Below, piece by piece: positions 25,665 to 31,523 of a stretch of 64,000 bases of DNA; position 1 is the first letter of the stretch; the number at the start of each line of letters is the position of its first letter. The DNA is from Escherichia coli (lineage in GTDB: Bacteria; Pseudomonadota; Gammaproteobacteria; Enterobacterales; Enterobacteriaceae): the NCBI RefSeq assembly GCF_029227855.1, contig NZ_CP074356.1. The stretch is one strand, 5' to 3'. Below the pieces are notes generated by a model that was not told the DNA's origin, ran no database searches, and worked only from the letters and a program-made list of their open reading frames with translations. A program made the position numbers and the translations under genes.

Positions 25665-26819
25665 TTACTTCAGACCGGCAGCATCGTGCAGCAGCTGCGC
25701 TTTGTCGGTTTTTTCCCACGGGAAATGTTCGCGACCAAAGTGACCGTATGCTGCGGTTTCTTTGTAGATCGGGTGCAGCAGATCCAGCATCTGAATCAGA
25801 CCGTATGGACGCAGGTCAAAGAACTCACGTACCAGCAGAGTCAGTTGTTCAGAAGGCACTTTCTCGGTACCGAAAGTTTCCACCATGATAGAGGTCGGTT
25901 CAGCCACGCCGATTGCGTAGGAAACCTGAATTTCACAACGATCGGCCAGGCCAGCAGCAACGATGTTTTTCGCGACATAACGTGCTGCGTAGGCTGCGGA
26001 ACGGTCCACTTTTGATGGATCTTTACCAGAGAATGCACCACCACCGTGACGTGCCATGCCGCCGTAGGTATCAACGATAATTTTACGACCAGTCAGACCG
26101 CAGTCACCCATCGGGCCACCGATAACAAAACGACCGGTCGGGTTGATGAAGAATTTGGTGGCAGAAGTCAGCCATTCAGCCGGCAGAATTGGCTTGATGA
26201 TCTCTTCCATTACCGCTTCTTGCAGCGATTTCTGGTCGATCTCTTCAGAGTGCTGAGTGGAAAGCACGACAGCATCAATACCAACGATTTTGTCGTCGTC
26301 ATACTGGAAAGTCACCTGGCTTTTCGCGTCCGGGCGCAGCCACGGCAGAGTGCCGTTTTTACGCACTTCAGCCTGACGCTGTACCAGACGGTGTGCATAG
26401 GTGATAGGTGCTGGCATCAGCACGTCGGTTTCATTGGTTGCGTAGCCAAACATCAGACCCTGGTCACCCGCGCCCTGTTCCAGCGGATCGGCACGGTCAA
26501 CGCCCTGGTTGATGTCAGGAGACTGTTTGCCGATAGCGCTCAGAACCGCACAGGAGTTAGCGTCAAAGCCCATGTCGGAATGCACATAGCCAATTTCGCG
26601 AACGGTGTTACGGGTGATCTCTTCGATGTCTACCCAGGCGCTGGTGGTGATTTCGCCGCCAACTAAAACCATGCCGGTTTTTACGTAGGTTTCGCAAGCA
26701 ACGCGTGCTTTCGGATCCTGTTCGAGGATCGCGTCTAAAACGGCATCAGAAATTTGGTCAGCAATTTTGTCAGGATGCCCTTCAGAGACGGACTCGGACG
26801 TAAAAAGGTGTTTTGCCAT
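25665..26819 (-). CDS. metK: S-adenosylmethionine synthetase (384 aa)
   Basis: ORF 25665..26831; protein from [43 protein letters not shown]; start trimmed. Confidence 0.95.
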
Positions 26820-27122
26820 ATTTAATATCACCTAAAGAGAATTTGGTTAGCTCAAACTGTTGTGTGGATTTTCTGTGGTAGCGGATCCTACCACGACTCT
26901 GCAGGTTAAAAACACTGGCAGTCTGAGTGTTAATCGGTATGGATGGATTAACATCTGGATGGCTATTTTAGGTCAATTCTTCACCCGATTTCCACTTTTT
27001 TTTGAATCGTGTCTCATTCTGTTAAAAACGTGGCTGGAAATTTTTCCTGACAATGCTGGCATTCTGCGTATTTATCTTTTGCAATTTTCTGCCATTGTGG
27101 GGTATAAAACGCGGCGCGCGGC

Positions 27123-27338
27123 TTAAATAAAAAGCACACGACGTTTCTTTCGTGTTGCCACTTCCAGCCGGGTTGAAATCAGAGTTTTGGCTTGTGGGTT
27201 CGTCTTAACAGGCGGCCGTGGAGGTGATACGAAATAATGAACCGTTGTCTGCTGCTTAACCTGTCTCACCGTTCTGGTGAAGATTCGTTCCCCGCACTCT
27301 GCATCTCTGCTTTGCATACCTGCCGATGTTATACCCAT
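27123..27338 (-). CDS. Small ORF (71 aa), candidate YqgC-like protein in the metK-speA intergenic region
   Basis: 71-aa [29 protein letters not shown]...; length and position match what I recall of K-12 yqgC, but I cannot verify the sequence from memory. Confidence 0.35.
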
Positions 27339-27473
27339 CTCGGCGCTTCTCAGGATTCAAGAGCTGGTTACAGTTACTGAGGACTGAACAAGGGCGCTCT
27401 TGTAAAAACAAGAGTTTTCTCGTGGTTTCGCCGAACTGTCACACTTACGTTCGGTTATGTGCTTAATAATGTT

Positions 27474-27605
27474 ATGAAAAAGAAACCGGTTGCGCAGTTG
27501 GAGCGTCAGCATTCACTGCTGGAAAATCCATGTGCTTATGGGTTGTTATCGCAGTTCCAGGCTGCGATAGTCGTTAACTGTTTTACACTTAATAAAATAA
27601 TTTGA
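27474..27605 (+). CDS. yqgB: Small protein YqgB (43 aa), immediately upstream of speA
   Basis: Hand-translated: [43 protein letters not shown]; below the ORF-track length cut-off; stop lies 8 nt before the speA ATG. Confidence 0.8.
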
Positions 27606-27613
27606 GGTTCGCT

Positions 27614-29590
27614 ATGTCTGACGACATGTCTATGGGTTTGCCTTCGTCAGCGGGCGAACACGGTGTACTACGCTCCATGCAGGAGGTTGCAATGAGCTCC
27701 CAGGAAGCCAGCAAGATGCTGCGTACTTACAATATTGCCTGGTGGGGCAATAACTACTATGACGTTAACGAGCTGGGCCACATTAGCGTGTGCCCGGACC
27801 CGGACGTCCCGGAAGCTCGCGTCGATCTCGCGCAGTTAGTGAAAACTCGTGAAGCACAGGGCCAGCGTCTGCCTGCACTGTTCTGTTTCCCACAGATCCT
27901 GCAGCACCGTTTGCGTTCTATTAACGCCGCGTTCAAACGTGCGCGGGAATCCTACGGCTATAACGGCGATTACTTCCTCGTTTATCCGATCAAAGTTAAC
28001 CAGCACCGCCGCGTGATTGAGTCCCTGATTCATTCGGGCGAACCGCTGGGCCTGGAAGCCGGTTCCAAAGCGGAGTTGATGGCGGTGCTGGCACATGCTG
28101 GCATGACCCGTAGCGTCATCGTCTGCAACGGTTATAAGGACCGCGAATATATCCGCCTGGCATTAATTGGCGAGAAGATGGGCCACAAGGTCTATCTGGT
28201 CATTGAGAAGATGTCAGAAATTGCCATTGTGCTGGATGAAGCAGAACGTCTGAATGTCGTTCCTCGTCTGGGCGTGCGTGCACGTCTGGCTTCGCAGGGC
28301 TCGGGTAAATGGCAGTCCTCCGGCGGGGAAAAATCGAAGTTCGGCCTGGCGGCGACTCAGGTACTGCAACTGGTTGAAACCCTGCGTGAAGCCGGGCGTC
28401 TCGACAGCCTGCAACTACTGCACTTCCACCTCGGTTCGCAGATGGCGAATATTCGCGATATCGCGACAGGCGTTCGTGAATCCGCGCGTTTCTATGTTGA
28501 GCTGCACAAGCTGGGCGTCAATATTCAGTGCTTCGACGTCGGCGGCGGTCTGGGCGTGGACTATGAAGGCACCCGTTCGCAGTCCGACTGTTCGGTGAAC
28601 TACGGCCTCAATGAATACGCCAACAACATCATCTGGGCGATTGGTGATGCGTGTGAAGAAAATGGTCTGCCGCATCCGACGGTAATTACCGAATCGGGTC
28701 GTGCGGTGACTGCGCATCACACCGTGCTGGTGTCGAATATCATCGGCGTGGAACGTAACGAATACACGGTGCCGACCGCGCCTGCAGAAGACGCACCGCG
28801 CGCCCTGCAAAGCATGTGGGAAACCTGGCAGGAGATGCACGAACCGGGAACTCGCCGTTCTCTGCGTGAATGGTTACACGACAGCCAGATGGATCTGCAC
28901 GACATTCATATCGGCTACTCTTCCGGCACCTTTAGCCTGCAAGAACGTGCATGGGCAGAACAACTCTATCTGAGCATGTGCCATGAAGTGCAGAAGCAAC
29001 TGGATCCGCAAAACCGTGCGCATCGTCCGATTATCGACGAACTGCAGGAACGTATGGCGGACAAAATGTACGTCAACTTCTCGCTGTTCCAGTCAATGCC
29101 GGACGCATGGGGGATCGACCAGTTGTTCCCGGTTCTGCCGCTGGAAGGGTTGGATCAAGTGCCAGAGCGCCGCGCTGTGCTGCTGGATATTACCTGTGAT
29201 TCTGACGGTGCTATTGATCACTACATCGATGGTGATGGTATTGCCACGACAATGCCAATGCCGGAGTACGATCCAGAGAATCCGCCGATGCTCGGTTTCT
29301 TCATGGTCGGCGCATATCAGGAGATCCTTGGCAACATGCACAACCTGTTCGGTGATACCGAAGCGGTTGACGTGTTCGTCTTCCCTGACGGCAGCGTAGA
29401 AGTAGAACTGTCTGACGAAGGCGATACCGTGGCGGACATGCTGCAATATGTACAGCTCGATCCGAAAACGTTGTTAACCCAGTTCCGTGATCAAGTGAAG
29501 AAAACCGATCTTGATGCTGAACTGCAACAACAGTTCCTGGAAGAGTTCGAGGCAGGTTTGTACGGTTATACCTATCTTGAAGATGAATAA
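27614..29590 (+). CDS. speA: Biosynthetic arginine decarboxylase (658 aa)
   Basis: ORF 27602..29590; protein from [56 protein letters not shown]; start trimmed. Confidence 0.94.
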
Positions 29591-29735: not shown

Positions 29736-30467
29736 ATGAAAAAATGGAAAGTACGTAGCGCGTTGATAGCATTAGCCGTGCTGCTGGCCGGTTGTTCCAG
29801 TAATGCGCAGTATAATAGCAGTGCATCAGGCAATGTCGGCACCGCCTGGGGTGGGGATGTACACTCATCGGTTCAGGGCGTATCTGCTGAACGAGTCTGG
29901 CGCGATCCGGCAGAGATGATCGTTATTAGTTATTCGACTACTGTTCCTTCGGGCTACGACCGCGTTTATAGCATTCGTATTAACGAACTTGAATATGCTA
30001 TTCGCGATGGTAATTTTAATTCTCTACCTATTACGCGGGTTTATGATTCGTCAAATAATGAACCACGCTATATTGTCCATGCCAGAGTAGGAATGAATTA
30101 TCAATTATATGTCCGCAATTACAGTCGTAACACCAACTACGAGATCGTTGCTACGGTTGATGGCCTGGATGTGCTGAACGGCAAACAAGGTTCGCTGAAT
30201 AACAACGGCTATATTGTGAATGCCGGAGATTCGTTAGCGATTAAAGGATTCCGCAAAGATAAACATACCGAAGCGGCTTTTCAGTTCGCCAACGTTGCTG
30301 ATTCCTACGCAGCCAATTCGGCGCAAGGCGATGTGCGTAATACCGGGGTAATCGGCTTTGCCGCCTTTGAATTACAAGGCTCGGCGCAAAACGCGATGCC
30401 GCCGTGCTCTGGACAAGCCTTTCCGGCAGATAACAATGGCTATGCGCCGCCACCGTGTCGGAAATAG
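29736..30467 (+). CDS. Uncharacterised lipoprotein (243 aa), not recognised as a K-12 gene
   Basis: Signal peptide with lipobox MKKWKVRSALIALAVLLAG-C-SSNA; Ser/Asn/Tyr/Gly-rich mature part; good RBS (gaggga) 7 nt upstream; AT-rich codon usage; own upstream AT-rich promoter region and downstream terminator. Confidence 0.75.
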   Translation: MKKWKVRSALIALAVLLAGCSSNAQYNSSASGNVGTAWGGDVHSSVQGVSAERVWRDPAEMIVISYSTTVPSGYDRVYSIRINELEYAIRDGNFNSLPITRVYDSSNNEPRYIVHARVGMNYQLYVRNYSRNTNYEIVATVDGLDVLNGKQGSLNNNGYIVNAGDSLAIKGFRKDKHTEAAFQFANVADSYAANSAQGDVRNTGVIGFAAFELQGSAQNAMPPCSGQAFPADNNGYAPPPCRK

Positions 30468-30602: not shown

Positions 30603-31523
30603 ATGAGCACCTTAGGTCATCAATACGATAACTCACTGGTTTCCAACGCCTTTGGTTTTTTACGCCTGCCGATGAACTTCCAGCCATATGACAGCGATGC
30701 TGACTGGGTGATTACTGGCGTGCCGTTCGATATGGCCACTTCTGGTCGTGCGGGTGGACGCCACGGTCCGGCTGCTATCCGTCAGGTTTCGACGAATCTG
30801 GCCTGGGAACACAACCGCTTCCCGTGGAATTTCGACATGCGTGAGCGCCTGAACGTGGTGGACTGCGGCGATCTGGTATATGCCTTCGGCGATGCCCGTG
30901 AGATGAGCGAGAAGCTGCAGGCGCACGCCGAGAAGCTGCTGGCTGCCGGTAAGCGTATGCTCTCCTTCGGTGGTGACCACTTTGTTACGCTGCCGCTGCT
31001 GCGTGCTCATGCGAAGCATTTCGGCAAAATGGCGCTGGTACACTTTGACGCCCACACCGACACCTATGCGAACGGTTGTGAATTTGACCACGGCACCATG
31101 TTCTATACCGCGCCGAAAGAAGGTCTGATCGACCCGAATCATTCCGTGCAGATTGGTATTCGTACCGAGTTTGATAAAGACAACGGTTTTACCGTGCTGG
31201 ACGCCTGCCAGGTGAACGATCGCAGCGTGGATGACGTTATCGCTCAGGTGAAACAGATTGTAGGTGATATGCCGGTTTACCTGACTTTTGATATCGACTG
31301 TCTGGATCCTGCTTTTGCACCAGGCACCGGTACCCCGGTAATTGGCGGCCTGACCTCCGATCGCGCTATTAAACTGGTACGCGGCCTGAAAGATCTCAAC
31401 ATCGTTGGGATGGACGTAGTGGAAGTGGCTCCGGCATACGATCAGTCGGAAATCACCGCTCTGGCTGCGGCGACGCTGGCGCTGGAGATGCTGTATATTC
31501 AGGCGGCGAAAAAGGGCGAGTAA
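30603..31523 (+). CDS. speB: Agmatinase (306 aa)
   Basis: [56 protein letters not shown]... Confidence 0.94.

Follow-up and report, generated by a model that had tools for sequence, protein, structure and literature searches.

The speA leader of Escherichia coli: two upstream open reading frames, yqgG and yqgB, and a doubtful antisense gene, yqgC

The intergenic region between metK and speA of Escherichia coli was analyzed in a 64,000-nt stretch of contig NZ_CP074356.1 (assembly GCF_029227855.1; hereinafter the window, from whose first nucleotide all positions are counted), with the focus on the interval 27123-27613, immediately upstream of the gene for SpeA, the biosynthetic arginine decarboxylase, with which the arginine route to putrescine begins. 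The reading that we favor, with moderate confidence, is that this interval constitutes the body of an approximately 500-nt speA leader that carries two translated upstream open reading frames (uORFs), namely yqgB, a real, translated and weakly constrained uORF that acts mainly in cis, and yqgG, a second translated uORF, and that the 71-codon frame yqgC on the opposite strand is an artefact. Within this reading, the identities of the open reading frames (ORFs), the conserved openness and end positions of yqgB and yqgG, the covariation in the RNA, the lack of conservation and translation of yqgC, the Rho dependence of termination and the lower speA expression upon deletion of yqgB are established by computational tools or in the literature.

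The start codon of metK (minus strand) occupies positions 26817-26819, and speA (plus strand) extends from the ATG at 27614 to 29590, in agreement with the ORF list and with the annotation of K-12 and strain 118UI. Used as a query, the 791-nt metK-speA intergenic region shows 100% identity to E. coli strain 118UI and was found in 5425 of 5426 complete genomes, each at no less than 95% identity; compared with K-12 MG1655, it differs at three positions (26987, 27057 and 27438), all outside yqgB, yqgC and yqgG. The K-12 annotation places yqgB (b2939), yqgG (b4784), yqgC (b2940) and yqgD (b2941) at exactly the positions given below, and yqgD, yqgG and yqgB are also annotated by RefSeq in strain 118UI and in 15 genome rows drawn from across the ranking of the matches to the query (in one row, a hypothetical protein replaces yqgD). 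An earlier note on this DNA had reported a 43-codon ORF from the ATG at 27474 (within 27459-27605, plus strand) and a 71-aa ORF on the minus strand (27123-27338) and had identified them as yqgB and yqgC; both ORFs are present, and both names are correct, the two frames being identical in alignment to their K-12 counterparts and scoring well above the cut-offs of the family models given below. These small ORFs are already known and annotated, so that as written the note adds nothing new.

For the comparative analysis, the N-terminal 300 residues of SpeA were used as the query, and 80 of the 518 speA relatives in species-representative genomes were collected. All 80 loci belong to Enterobacteriaceae, with SpeA 95-100% identical over the query, and in 79 of them enough upstream sequence was available; metK-speA synteny is seen in 65 loci, with a spacing of 718-1036 nt. 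More distant genomes, with SpeA 85-86% identical, were reached through the relatives of YqgG, and the divergence of assemblies GCA_002858825.1, GCA_001153365.1 and GCA_020523985.1 is expressed as SpeA identity. The frequency of in-frame stop codons was compared with that in 5000 permutations, in which the variable columns of the alignment were shuffled such that composition and phylogeny were preserved.

The upstream frame yqgB and its junction with speA

The second uORF, yqgB (27474-27605, plus strand), encodes 43 amino acids and matches Pfam family PF11036 (YqgB) with 113.3 bits (cut-off 24) and the NCBIfam equivalog model NF033844 (small_YqgB) with 90.1 bits (cut-off 35). Its TGA (27603-27605) precedes the speA ATG by 8 nt (27606-27613), as had been noticed previously, and shares bases with the speA Shine-Dalgarno (SD) sequence GAGG (27604-27607), the UGA lying within UGAGG. 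In all 79 loci, yqgB is located immediately upstream of speA, on the same strand, and starts with ATG. None of the 76 aligned loci contains an in-frame stop, against a permutation mean of 59.6 and with none of the 5000 permutations reaching zero; in the best match as well, the frame is free of stops in all 74 non-Escherichia loci. The question raised in the earlier note, whether the frame is conserved across Enterobacteriaceae, is thereby answered in the affirmative, whereas the supposition that standard pipelines drop such a short gene does not apply to yqgB, which is annotated in all 15 sampled genome rows.

The frame ends 8 nt before speA in 56 loci and 8 nt into speA in the remaining 23; the third possible frame, with yqgB fused to speA, is used in none of the 79. 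In the 23-locus form, the UGA falls in speA codons 2-3 (…EVRYV*); the shift into this frame is due to length differences of 1 or 4 nt close to the junction. The C-terminal frame varies between close relatives: in Citrobacter, …KI* and …KIEVRYV* differ by a single T in the run before GAGG. A stop adjacent to or overlapping the speA start or ribosome-binding site (RBS) is found in 79 of 79 loci, and the sequence directly before the speA ATG, TGAGGTTCGCT, is exact in 76. The length variants of yqgB that result from deletions and insertions (38, 45, 55, 60, 68, 87, 90 and 91 codons) are all open to the junction, and in the three longest ones (87, 90 and 91 codons) the other two frames carry one or two stops each, the used frame alone being open through the insertion.

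The peptide encoded by yqgB is weakly constrained. The column entropy by codon position (0.60/0.69/0.62) lacks coding periodicity, and dN/dS against E. coli is 0.52, compared to 0.03 for speA. At the conserved YqgB residues, all three codon positions are conserved and match RNA stems, and the variable residues match loops. A distant locus (L083) contains a 25-codon uORF in a different frame, the UGA of which overlaps the speA AUG (UGAUG), and two others (L085 and L086) have no ATG-started yqgB and instead contain a 35-codon open frame with TTG codons that ends in speA codons 2-3. Thus, the arrangement in which an ORF ends at the speA RBS persists in distant genomes, and the YqgB peptide does not. 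Judging from the sequence comparison, the conservation of yqgB appears to be largely at the RNA rather than at the protein level, and yqgB probably behaves as a cis-acting uORF rather than as a conserved protein. According to these comparative data, yqgB, the product of which has been called an 'acid stress protein', is probably a cis-acting uORF, a point of direct relevance to a study of 2026 in which YqgB is considered a drug target (PMC13159126).

Rho-dependent premature termination in the speA leader has been demonstrated with reporter fusions and northern blots (Adams et al., 2021, PMC7815308). The K-12 coordinates of that study, in which the speA locus is on the minus strand, were converted through the K-12-to-window relation; on the plus strand of the window, the Rho-termination region starts at 27470 (K-12 3086055; score 3.69, p 8.7e-20, supplementary file 2), 4 nt before the yqgB ATG, and the Rho-dependent RNA 3' end, which is flagged 'uORF', is at 27671 (K-12 3085854; Rho score 3.09, supplementary files 1 and 3), 57 nt into speA. 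Deletion of yqgB in Salmonella is reported to lower speA and speB mRNA and arginine decarboxylase (PMC13159126).

Combined, these data suggest, with a probability that we consider only somewhat better than even, that ribosomes translating yqgB as far as the speA SD keep Rho from terminating the transcript and favor initiation of speA. Given that the yqgB UGA sits inside the speA SD, ribosomes would translate yqgB right up to the speA RBS; this translation would shield the transcript from the Rho termination that starts around 27470 and leaves the 3' end at 27671, and would deliver ribosomes to, or unmask, an otherwise structured speA start, that is, act through translational coupling. On this premise, most of what has been attributed to the YqgB protein would be due to speA, and the reported phenotypes of yqgB deletion would be cis effects on speA. 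The suggestion of translational coupling or leader-like control made in the earlier note accordingly gains support from the conserved start, the openness of the frame, the stop abutting speA and the published Rho-dependent termination. Local RNAalifold analysis predicts a candidate helix that would occlude the speA RBS (27570-27615, plus strand), with the 5' arm at 27570-27579 (yqgB codons 33-36) and the 3' arm at 27606-27615 (SD and AUG); in the global consensus fold, the RBS region is paired with other, long-range partners. Partition-function folding of the 79 loci gives a median unpaired probability of 0.27 for the speA RBS versus 0.53 for that of yqgB, and in each of the 79 loci the yqgB site is predicted to be more open than the speA site. 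These accessibility data are weakly compatible with coupling by unmasking.

Several observations weigh against this interpretation. When the 3' end of the uORF is forced to be single-stranded, the accessibility of the speA RBS rises only from 0.27 to 0.40, and the occluding helix is nearly invariant, without support from covariation and with a single-sequence z of -1.5. Two of the three frames stop within 8 nt of the speA ATG in any case, which makes the fixed end position less striking, so that the informative point is the openness of yqgB through variable and inserted sequence rather than the exact distance. Initiation at 27474, for which the earlier note had proposed to consult ribosome profiling, was detected in vitro by INRI-seq, and in the same work the in vivo initiation peak of yqgB was reported as undetectable, which was ascribed to low abundance. 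Furthermore, the dN/dS of yqgB is below 1 and YqgB is counted among the experimentally validated small proteins (Adams et al., PMC7815308), so that a function of the YqgB peptide in trans may exist.

The latter option, under which YqgB is mainly a trans-acting small protein, an 'acid stress response protein' with other targets, and the adjacency to speA reflects simple operon organization, appears unlikely to us although not negligibly so. It draws on the names of the families (NF033844, 'acid stress response protein YqgB', and PF11036, 'virulence promoting factor'), on the acid- and colistin-related phenotypes of the deletion and the claimed drug binding (PMC13159126), on the induction of heat-shock proteins, rather than an arrest signature, by overexpressed YqgB, which implies that the peptide accumulates (PMC11890864), and on a dN/dS of 0.52, which is below 1. 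It is difficult to reconcile with the absence of codon periodicity and the distribution of conserved and variable residues over RNA stems and loops, and with a C-terminal frame that varies among close relatives and a peptide that is replaced or lacks its ATG in distant genomes while the layout with an ORF ending at speA persists. Moreover, with the deletion a segment of the speA leader is lost and speA mRNA decreases, and the words 'complement' and 'polar' are absent from the main text of the respective study (PMC13159126).

Some additional features of the yqgB-speA junction can be mentioned. The yqgB start is A/U-rich and has no recognizable SD. A two-codon mini-ORF, AUG-UUA-UGA (27469-27477, plus strand), overlaps the yqgB start codon (AUGUUAUGA), and an AUG-NNA-UGA equivalent occurs in the majority of the 79 loci, though not in each of them (in many genera as AUGAUAUGA). 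A promoter or a leaderless yqgB start, considered because of a conserved TACAAT just upstream, was dropped given that the spacing puts the transcript start after the ATG. A word-indexed protein search with YqgB returned matches confined to Escherichia and Shigella and one Klebsiella fragment and is uninformative on taxonomic breadth. Within speA, a strong internal SD, AGGAGG (27681-27686), with an ATG at 27692 (plus strand) corresponds to the published alternative SpeA start, 26 residues downstream, and the Rho-dependent 3' end at 27671 is just upstream of this internal SD.

The upstream frame yqgG and the antisense frames

The first uORF, yqgG (27237-27380, plus strand), encodes 47 amino acids, is antisense to yqgC and matches Pfam family PF23505 (YqgG) with 129.9 bits (cut-off 27). 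It is an experimentally supported gene that the earlier note overlooked: yqgG was discovered by ribosome profiling of stalled initiation complexes and was SPA-tagged (Weaver et al., 10.1101/511675). Its ATG is present in 77 of the 79 loci and is preceded by the almost invariant GGAGGTGATA. No in-frame stop was found in 63 rows (permutation mean 39.5, with 1 of 5000 permutations reaching zero) or, in the best match, in the 74 non-Escherichia loci.

The two parts of yqgG have evolved differently. In codons 28-44 (27318-27368, plus strand), dN/dS is 0.06 (dS 0.39), and in codons 1-27 it is 0.54, like in yqgB. The conserved part includes synonymous switching at Arg42 (AGA/CGA/CGG/AGG), Ser41 (TCA/TCT/TCG/TCC) and Ala43 (GCT/GCG/GCC), which extends to the distant loci L083, L085 and L087. 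By these substitution patterns, the YqgG C-terminus (RCxxxxGx[ST]QDSRAG) is under selection at the peptide level; the antisense yqgC cannot explain this conservation because codons 35-44 are outside yqgC. A profile search among 1.84 billion representative proteins recovered 19 YqgG relatives, the most divergent of which retain only …RC(Y/H)xxxG(A/T)[ST]QDSRAG followed by 0-6 residues and have unrelated N-termini, and the three distant relatives that could be located all lie between metK and speA. Peptide-level conservation of the C-terminus is accordingly seen in YqgG and not in YqgB, with its dN/dS of 0.52 and variable C-terminal frame.

The case of yqgC (27123-27338, minus strand; 71 codons) is different. 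The frame matches Pfam family PF17430 (YqgC) with 133.9 bits (cut-off 25), and it is intact in the Escherichia loci. In the best match, however, in-frame stops interrupt it in 53 of 74 non-Escherichia loci; read from the homologous ATG, it spans 2-132 codons, falls short of 50 codons in 54 of the 79 loci and has 71 codons in Escherichia only. The first 34 codons contain a stop in 46 of 67 loci, which is no different from the null expectation (permutation mean 55.5, p ~0.2), and there is no codon periodicity. By the permutation test, selection maintains the open frames of yqgB and yqgG but not that of yqgC. The yqgC ATG is the reverse complement of the conserved yqgG His34 codon, and yqgC codons are in register with yqgG codons. 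Weaver et al. (bioRxiv 10.1101/511675) detected neither ribosome density on yqgC nor its tagged protein; the gene is absent from the RefSeq annotation of strain 118UI and from each of the 15 genome rows.

The yqgC gene proposed in the earlier note therefore fails on the ground that the note itself had named, the frame being broken in most genera. It remains conceivable that yqgC is a real 71-aa protein that is expressed under conditions yet to be tried and forms a sense/antisense pair with yqgG; this is what the K-12 annotation (b2940) and the Pfam family would imply, and yqgG-yqgC has been listed as a divergent excludon on the basis of overlap in RNA-seq (PMC12288877). Against the broken frame, the stop frequency at the permutation null, the missing ribosome density and tagged protein, the absence from current annotation and the origin of the ATG as the complement of a conserved yqgG codon, we regard this explanation as very improbable. 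Thus, yqgC is almost certainly not a gene, being an annotation artefact, an open antisense frame over a conserved leader, and the finding of the earlier note, taken as written, would propagate a doubtful gene.

Further upstream, yqgD (26875-27126, plus strand; 83 aa, annotated in K-12 and RefSeq) has no Pfam or NCBIfam match, contains stops in 36 of 74 non-Escherichia loci, shows no codon periodicity, and overlaps the speA promoter and the start of the leader with its 3' end. It is probably a doubtful gene as well. The present analysis provides independent evidence for retiring yqgC, and probably yqgD.

Promoter and structure of the speA leader RNA

The cloning primer that was used for the speA 5' untranslated region (UTR) starts with GCGCGGCTTAAATAAAAAGC, that is, at position 27116 of the window (Adams et al., 2021, PMC7815308), which gives a leader of approximately 498 nt (27116-27613, plus strand) with both yqgG and yqgB inside. 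Eight nucleotides upstream of this 5' end, a candidate distal speA promoter (27079-27108, plus strand) is putatively composed of a -35 hexamer TTGCAA (27079-27084), an 18-nt spacer and a -10 hexamer TATAAA (27103-27108), followed by a GC-rich discriminator. The bases of this candidate are nearly invariant in the 79 loci; the site was not listed in a consensus promoter scan. The discriminator between the -10 hexamer and the leader 5' end reads ACGCGGC (27109-27116, plus strand), and GC-rich discriminators are typical for ppGpp/DksA-sensitive promoters.

In 58 non-Escherichia loci, the leader is 76% identical to that of E. coli, with blocks of 80-94%, whereas the fourfold-degenerate sites of speA in these genomes reach 57.5%. 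An Rfam scan of 26500-28000 on both strands at E<=1 yielded no match. RNAalifold applied to 63 leaders (alignment A1) predicted 95 base pairs, 23 of these with compensatory changes. Pairs were counted in a subset of 59 local pairs in nine named helices, in which 96.3% of the alignment cells are paired, compared with 91.8% in shuffled alignments and 39-48% in slid controls; this fraction is inflated because the structure was derived from the same sequences, and the counts of double changes are more telling. The number of cells changed on both sides is 217, versus 75.5 +/- 9.4 in shuffled alignments (none of 500 shuffles reaches the observed number) and 35-65 in slid controls, and both-side changes occur in 20 of the 59 pairs.

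The covarying helices are located upstream of yqgG (H1 and H2), inside yqgG (H3), between the two ORFs (H5 and H6) and inside yqgB (H7/H8), all on the plus strand. Hairpin H1 (27134-27158), near the 5' end of the leader, includes two compensatory pairs, with 97% of the cells paired; H2 (27200-27215), just 5' of the yqgG SD, shows both-side changes in five of six pairs; and H3 (27266-27280), which covers yqgG codons 10-15 and has a conserved loop CGUUCUG, in four of five pairs. H5 (27388-27423) starts 8 nt past the yqgG stop and contains a UA<->CG compensatory change in 22 sequences (99.5% of the cells paired), H6 (27431-27454) shows both-side changes in three of five pairs, and the nested helices H7/H8 (27494-27535), over yqgB codons 7-21, in four pairs. 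In H9 (27546-27570), also inside yqgB, all cells of the seven pairs are paired, the stems, which encode 'LLS' and 'AAI', are invariant and the loop is variable.

One could suppose that the conservation reflects DNA-level signals, such as promoters and transcription factor sites for the divergent metK and speA, rather than an RNA leader with functional uORFs. The region is indeed divergent and intergenic, it contains the promoter-like site at 27079-27108 and another consensus match at 27574-27601, and many of its invariant blocks cannot be assigned to RNA or DNA by covariation. Nevertheless, the compensatory changes in 20 base pairs, far above both shuffled and slid controls, the openness of yqgB and yqgG against expectation, the peptide-level selection on the YqgG C-terminus, and the transcription of the region as the speA 5' UTR, with Rho-dependent 3' ends mapped within it, make this explanation improbable in our estimate, and the region is best viewed as a structured leader RNA.

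An additional helix is predicted to form between an anti-SD element, CACUUCCA (27159-27166, plus strand), and the SD arm of yqgG, UGGAGGUG (27219-27226, plus strand). The anti-SD motif CCACTTCCAGCCGGG is exact in 72 of 79 loci, and TGGAGGTGA of the SD arm is present in 77. The respective alignment columns (117-124 with 232-239 in A1) are paired in 63 of 63 leaders and all invariant, and the helix is part of the minimum free energy fold of the E. coli leader (z -2.7); being invariant and hence without evidence from covariation, this pairing is a prediction from complementarity. A Term-seq 3' end (K-12 3086295, window 27230, plus strand) is located between the yqgG SD and AUG and would leave a structured 5' fragment of ~115 nt with H1, the anti-SD:SD helix and H2; it may stem from processing or pausing or belong to a stable by-product, and it is the only one listed between K-12 3085900 and 3086299 in the supplementary data of Adams et al. 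(PMC7815308).

Two other structural candidates were discarded. A consensus scan flagged 27396-27415, within H5, as terminator-like, and interpretation of H5 as an intrinsic terminator or a trp-type attenuator was rejected because no Term-seq 3' end is found there and the form is not kept in distant loci. A three-segment antiterminator, in which CAAGAGC (27358-27364) would compete for GCUCUUG (27396-27402), was read by eye from alignment A1 and dropped for lack of covariation (Klebsiella has CAGGGC with CUCUUG).

Lineage-specific insertions of ~50-65 nt occur at three fixed spots of the leader, namely after the first 8 nt (A1 columns 9-76; L012, L022, L031 and L067), between the anti-SD and H2 (columns ~136-185; L017, L035, L040, L043, L062 and L064), and inside the 3' end of yqgB (columns ~620-670; Kosakonia and other loci), where they leave the frame open. 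Invariant complementary motifs recur along the plus strand, with GAACC after the yqgG AUG, GAAACC after the yqgB AUG, and GGUUUC, GGUU and GGUUC (speA RBS) further along (positions 27240-27244, 27424-27429, 27482-27487, 27541-27544 and 27606-27610). These motifs pair differently in different predicted folds, which hints at alternative conformations that might link the three start sites.

Possible sensing by YqgG and similarity to known leaders

The yqgG ORF is the sole stretch of the leader in which C exceeds G, a rut-like composition (C/G 1.4-1.7 and 31-33% C in E. coli, with C/G below 1 in the flanks); C/G is above 1 in 77 of 77 loci, and the stretch lies ~100 nt upstream of the published Rho-termination region. 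A tentative model, which we put forward as possible rather than probable, is that the speA leader is a two-uORF riboregulator with YqgG, not YqgB, as the sensor. Under this model, the invariant anti-SD:SD helix would gate access to the yqgG start; ribosomes on yqgG would mask the only rut-like C-rich stretch of the leader; the C-terminal part of the nascent peptide (RCxxxxGx[ST]QDSRAG, then 0-7 residues and the stop) would stall or release the ribosome depending on a metabolite of the arginine/polyamine pathway; and the outcome would be either Rho termination at 27470-27671 or continued transcription with yqgB-coupled translation into speA. The sensor role of YqgG, which is proposed by likeness to SpeFL and MdtU, is the more speculative part. 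Arginine decarboxylase is repressed by polyamines. No mechanism for this repression was found in the searchable literature, where, beyond Rho-dependent termination and the listing of yqgB-speA among candidate uORF pairs, no mechanism of the speA leader is described either; if true, a YqgG riboregulator would supply it at the molecular level.

Among the known systems, the leader of mdtJI, which encodes the spermidine exporter of E. coli, resembles that of speA in having a long 5' UTR in a polyamine operon, a translated uORF, Rho-dependent termination with a 3' end just inside the first gene, one uORF conserved mainly at the C-terminus (MdtU there and YqgG here) and a region predicted to pair with the downstream RBS (PMC7815308). 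In contrast to mdtU-mdtJI, the speA leader contains two uORFs; the mdtU stop precedes mdtJ by 106 nt, but the yqgB stop is located within the speA SD. Furthermore, speA is a biosynthetic gene, which polyamines are expected to repress rather than to induce. The speFL-speF system includes a leader peptide upstream of a decarboxylase of polyamine biosynthesis, arrest in response to ornithine and an output through Rho and mRNA structure, and the layout of the YqgG C-terminus near the stop is similar; the differences are the lack of sequence similarity, the predicted sequestration of the yqgG SD by the anti-SD, and the presence of yqgB between the candidate sensor ORF and speA.

As in classical translational coupling, the upstream stop is a few nucleotides from the start of the next gene, the RBS of which is predicted to be structured, but the upstream ORF is a 43-codon uORF without a recognizable SD rather than a full-length gene, and the coupling is predicted from sequence. 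As in attenuators of the trp/pyrBI type, a leader ORF (yqgG) precedes a conserved hairpin that starts 8 nt past the stop and is U-rich on its 3' side; in the speA leader, however, no RNA 3' end is reported at the hairpin, this form is absent from distant loci and termination is Rho-dependent. The end of YqgG, …SQDSRAG, in which Arg-Ala is invariant and Gly nearly so, is superficially similar to the SecM arrest motif, …GIRAGP; there is no Pro after RAG in YqgG and the spacing differs, so the likeness is a lead rather than a relationship.

Altogether, a translated uORF in the leader, Rho-dependent termination downstream of a uORF and peptide-level conservation of a uORF C-terminus (that of YqgG) are found in the speA leader, which does not qualify as an intrinsic-terminator attenuator and matches no Rfam family. 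By analogy, the leader most resembles mdtU-mdtJI and speFL-speF, in which uORFs and Rho are combined in polyamine genes, and this resemblance suggests an uncharacterized regulator of the speFL/mdtU type. Besides speFL and mdtU, YqgG and the covarying leader represent a concrete candidate, open to testing, for feedback regulation of polyamine synthesis.

Downstream of speA, which ends at 29590, the window contains a 243-aa ORF (29736-30467, plus strand) with a lipoprotein-like N-terminus (MKKWKVRSALIALAVLLAGCSS…), followed by a 306-aa ORF (30603-31523) that is presumably speB. The gap between speA and speB in K-12 is 137 nt, so that an extra gene is present inside the speAB unit here; it is annotated as a hypothetical protein in strain 118UI.

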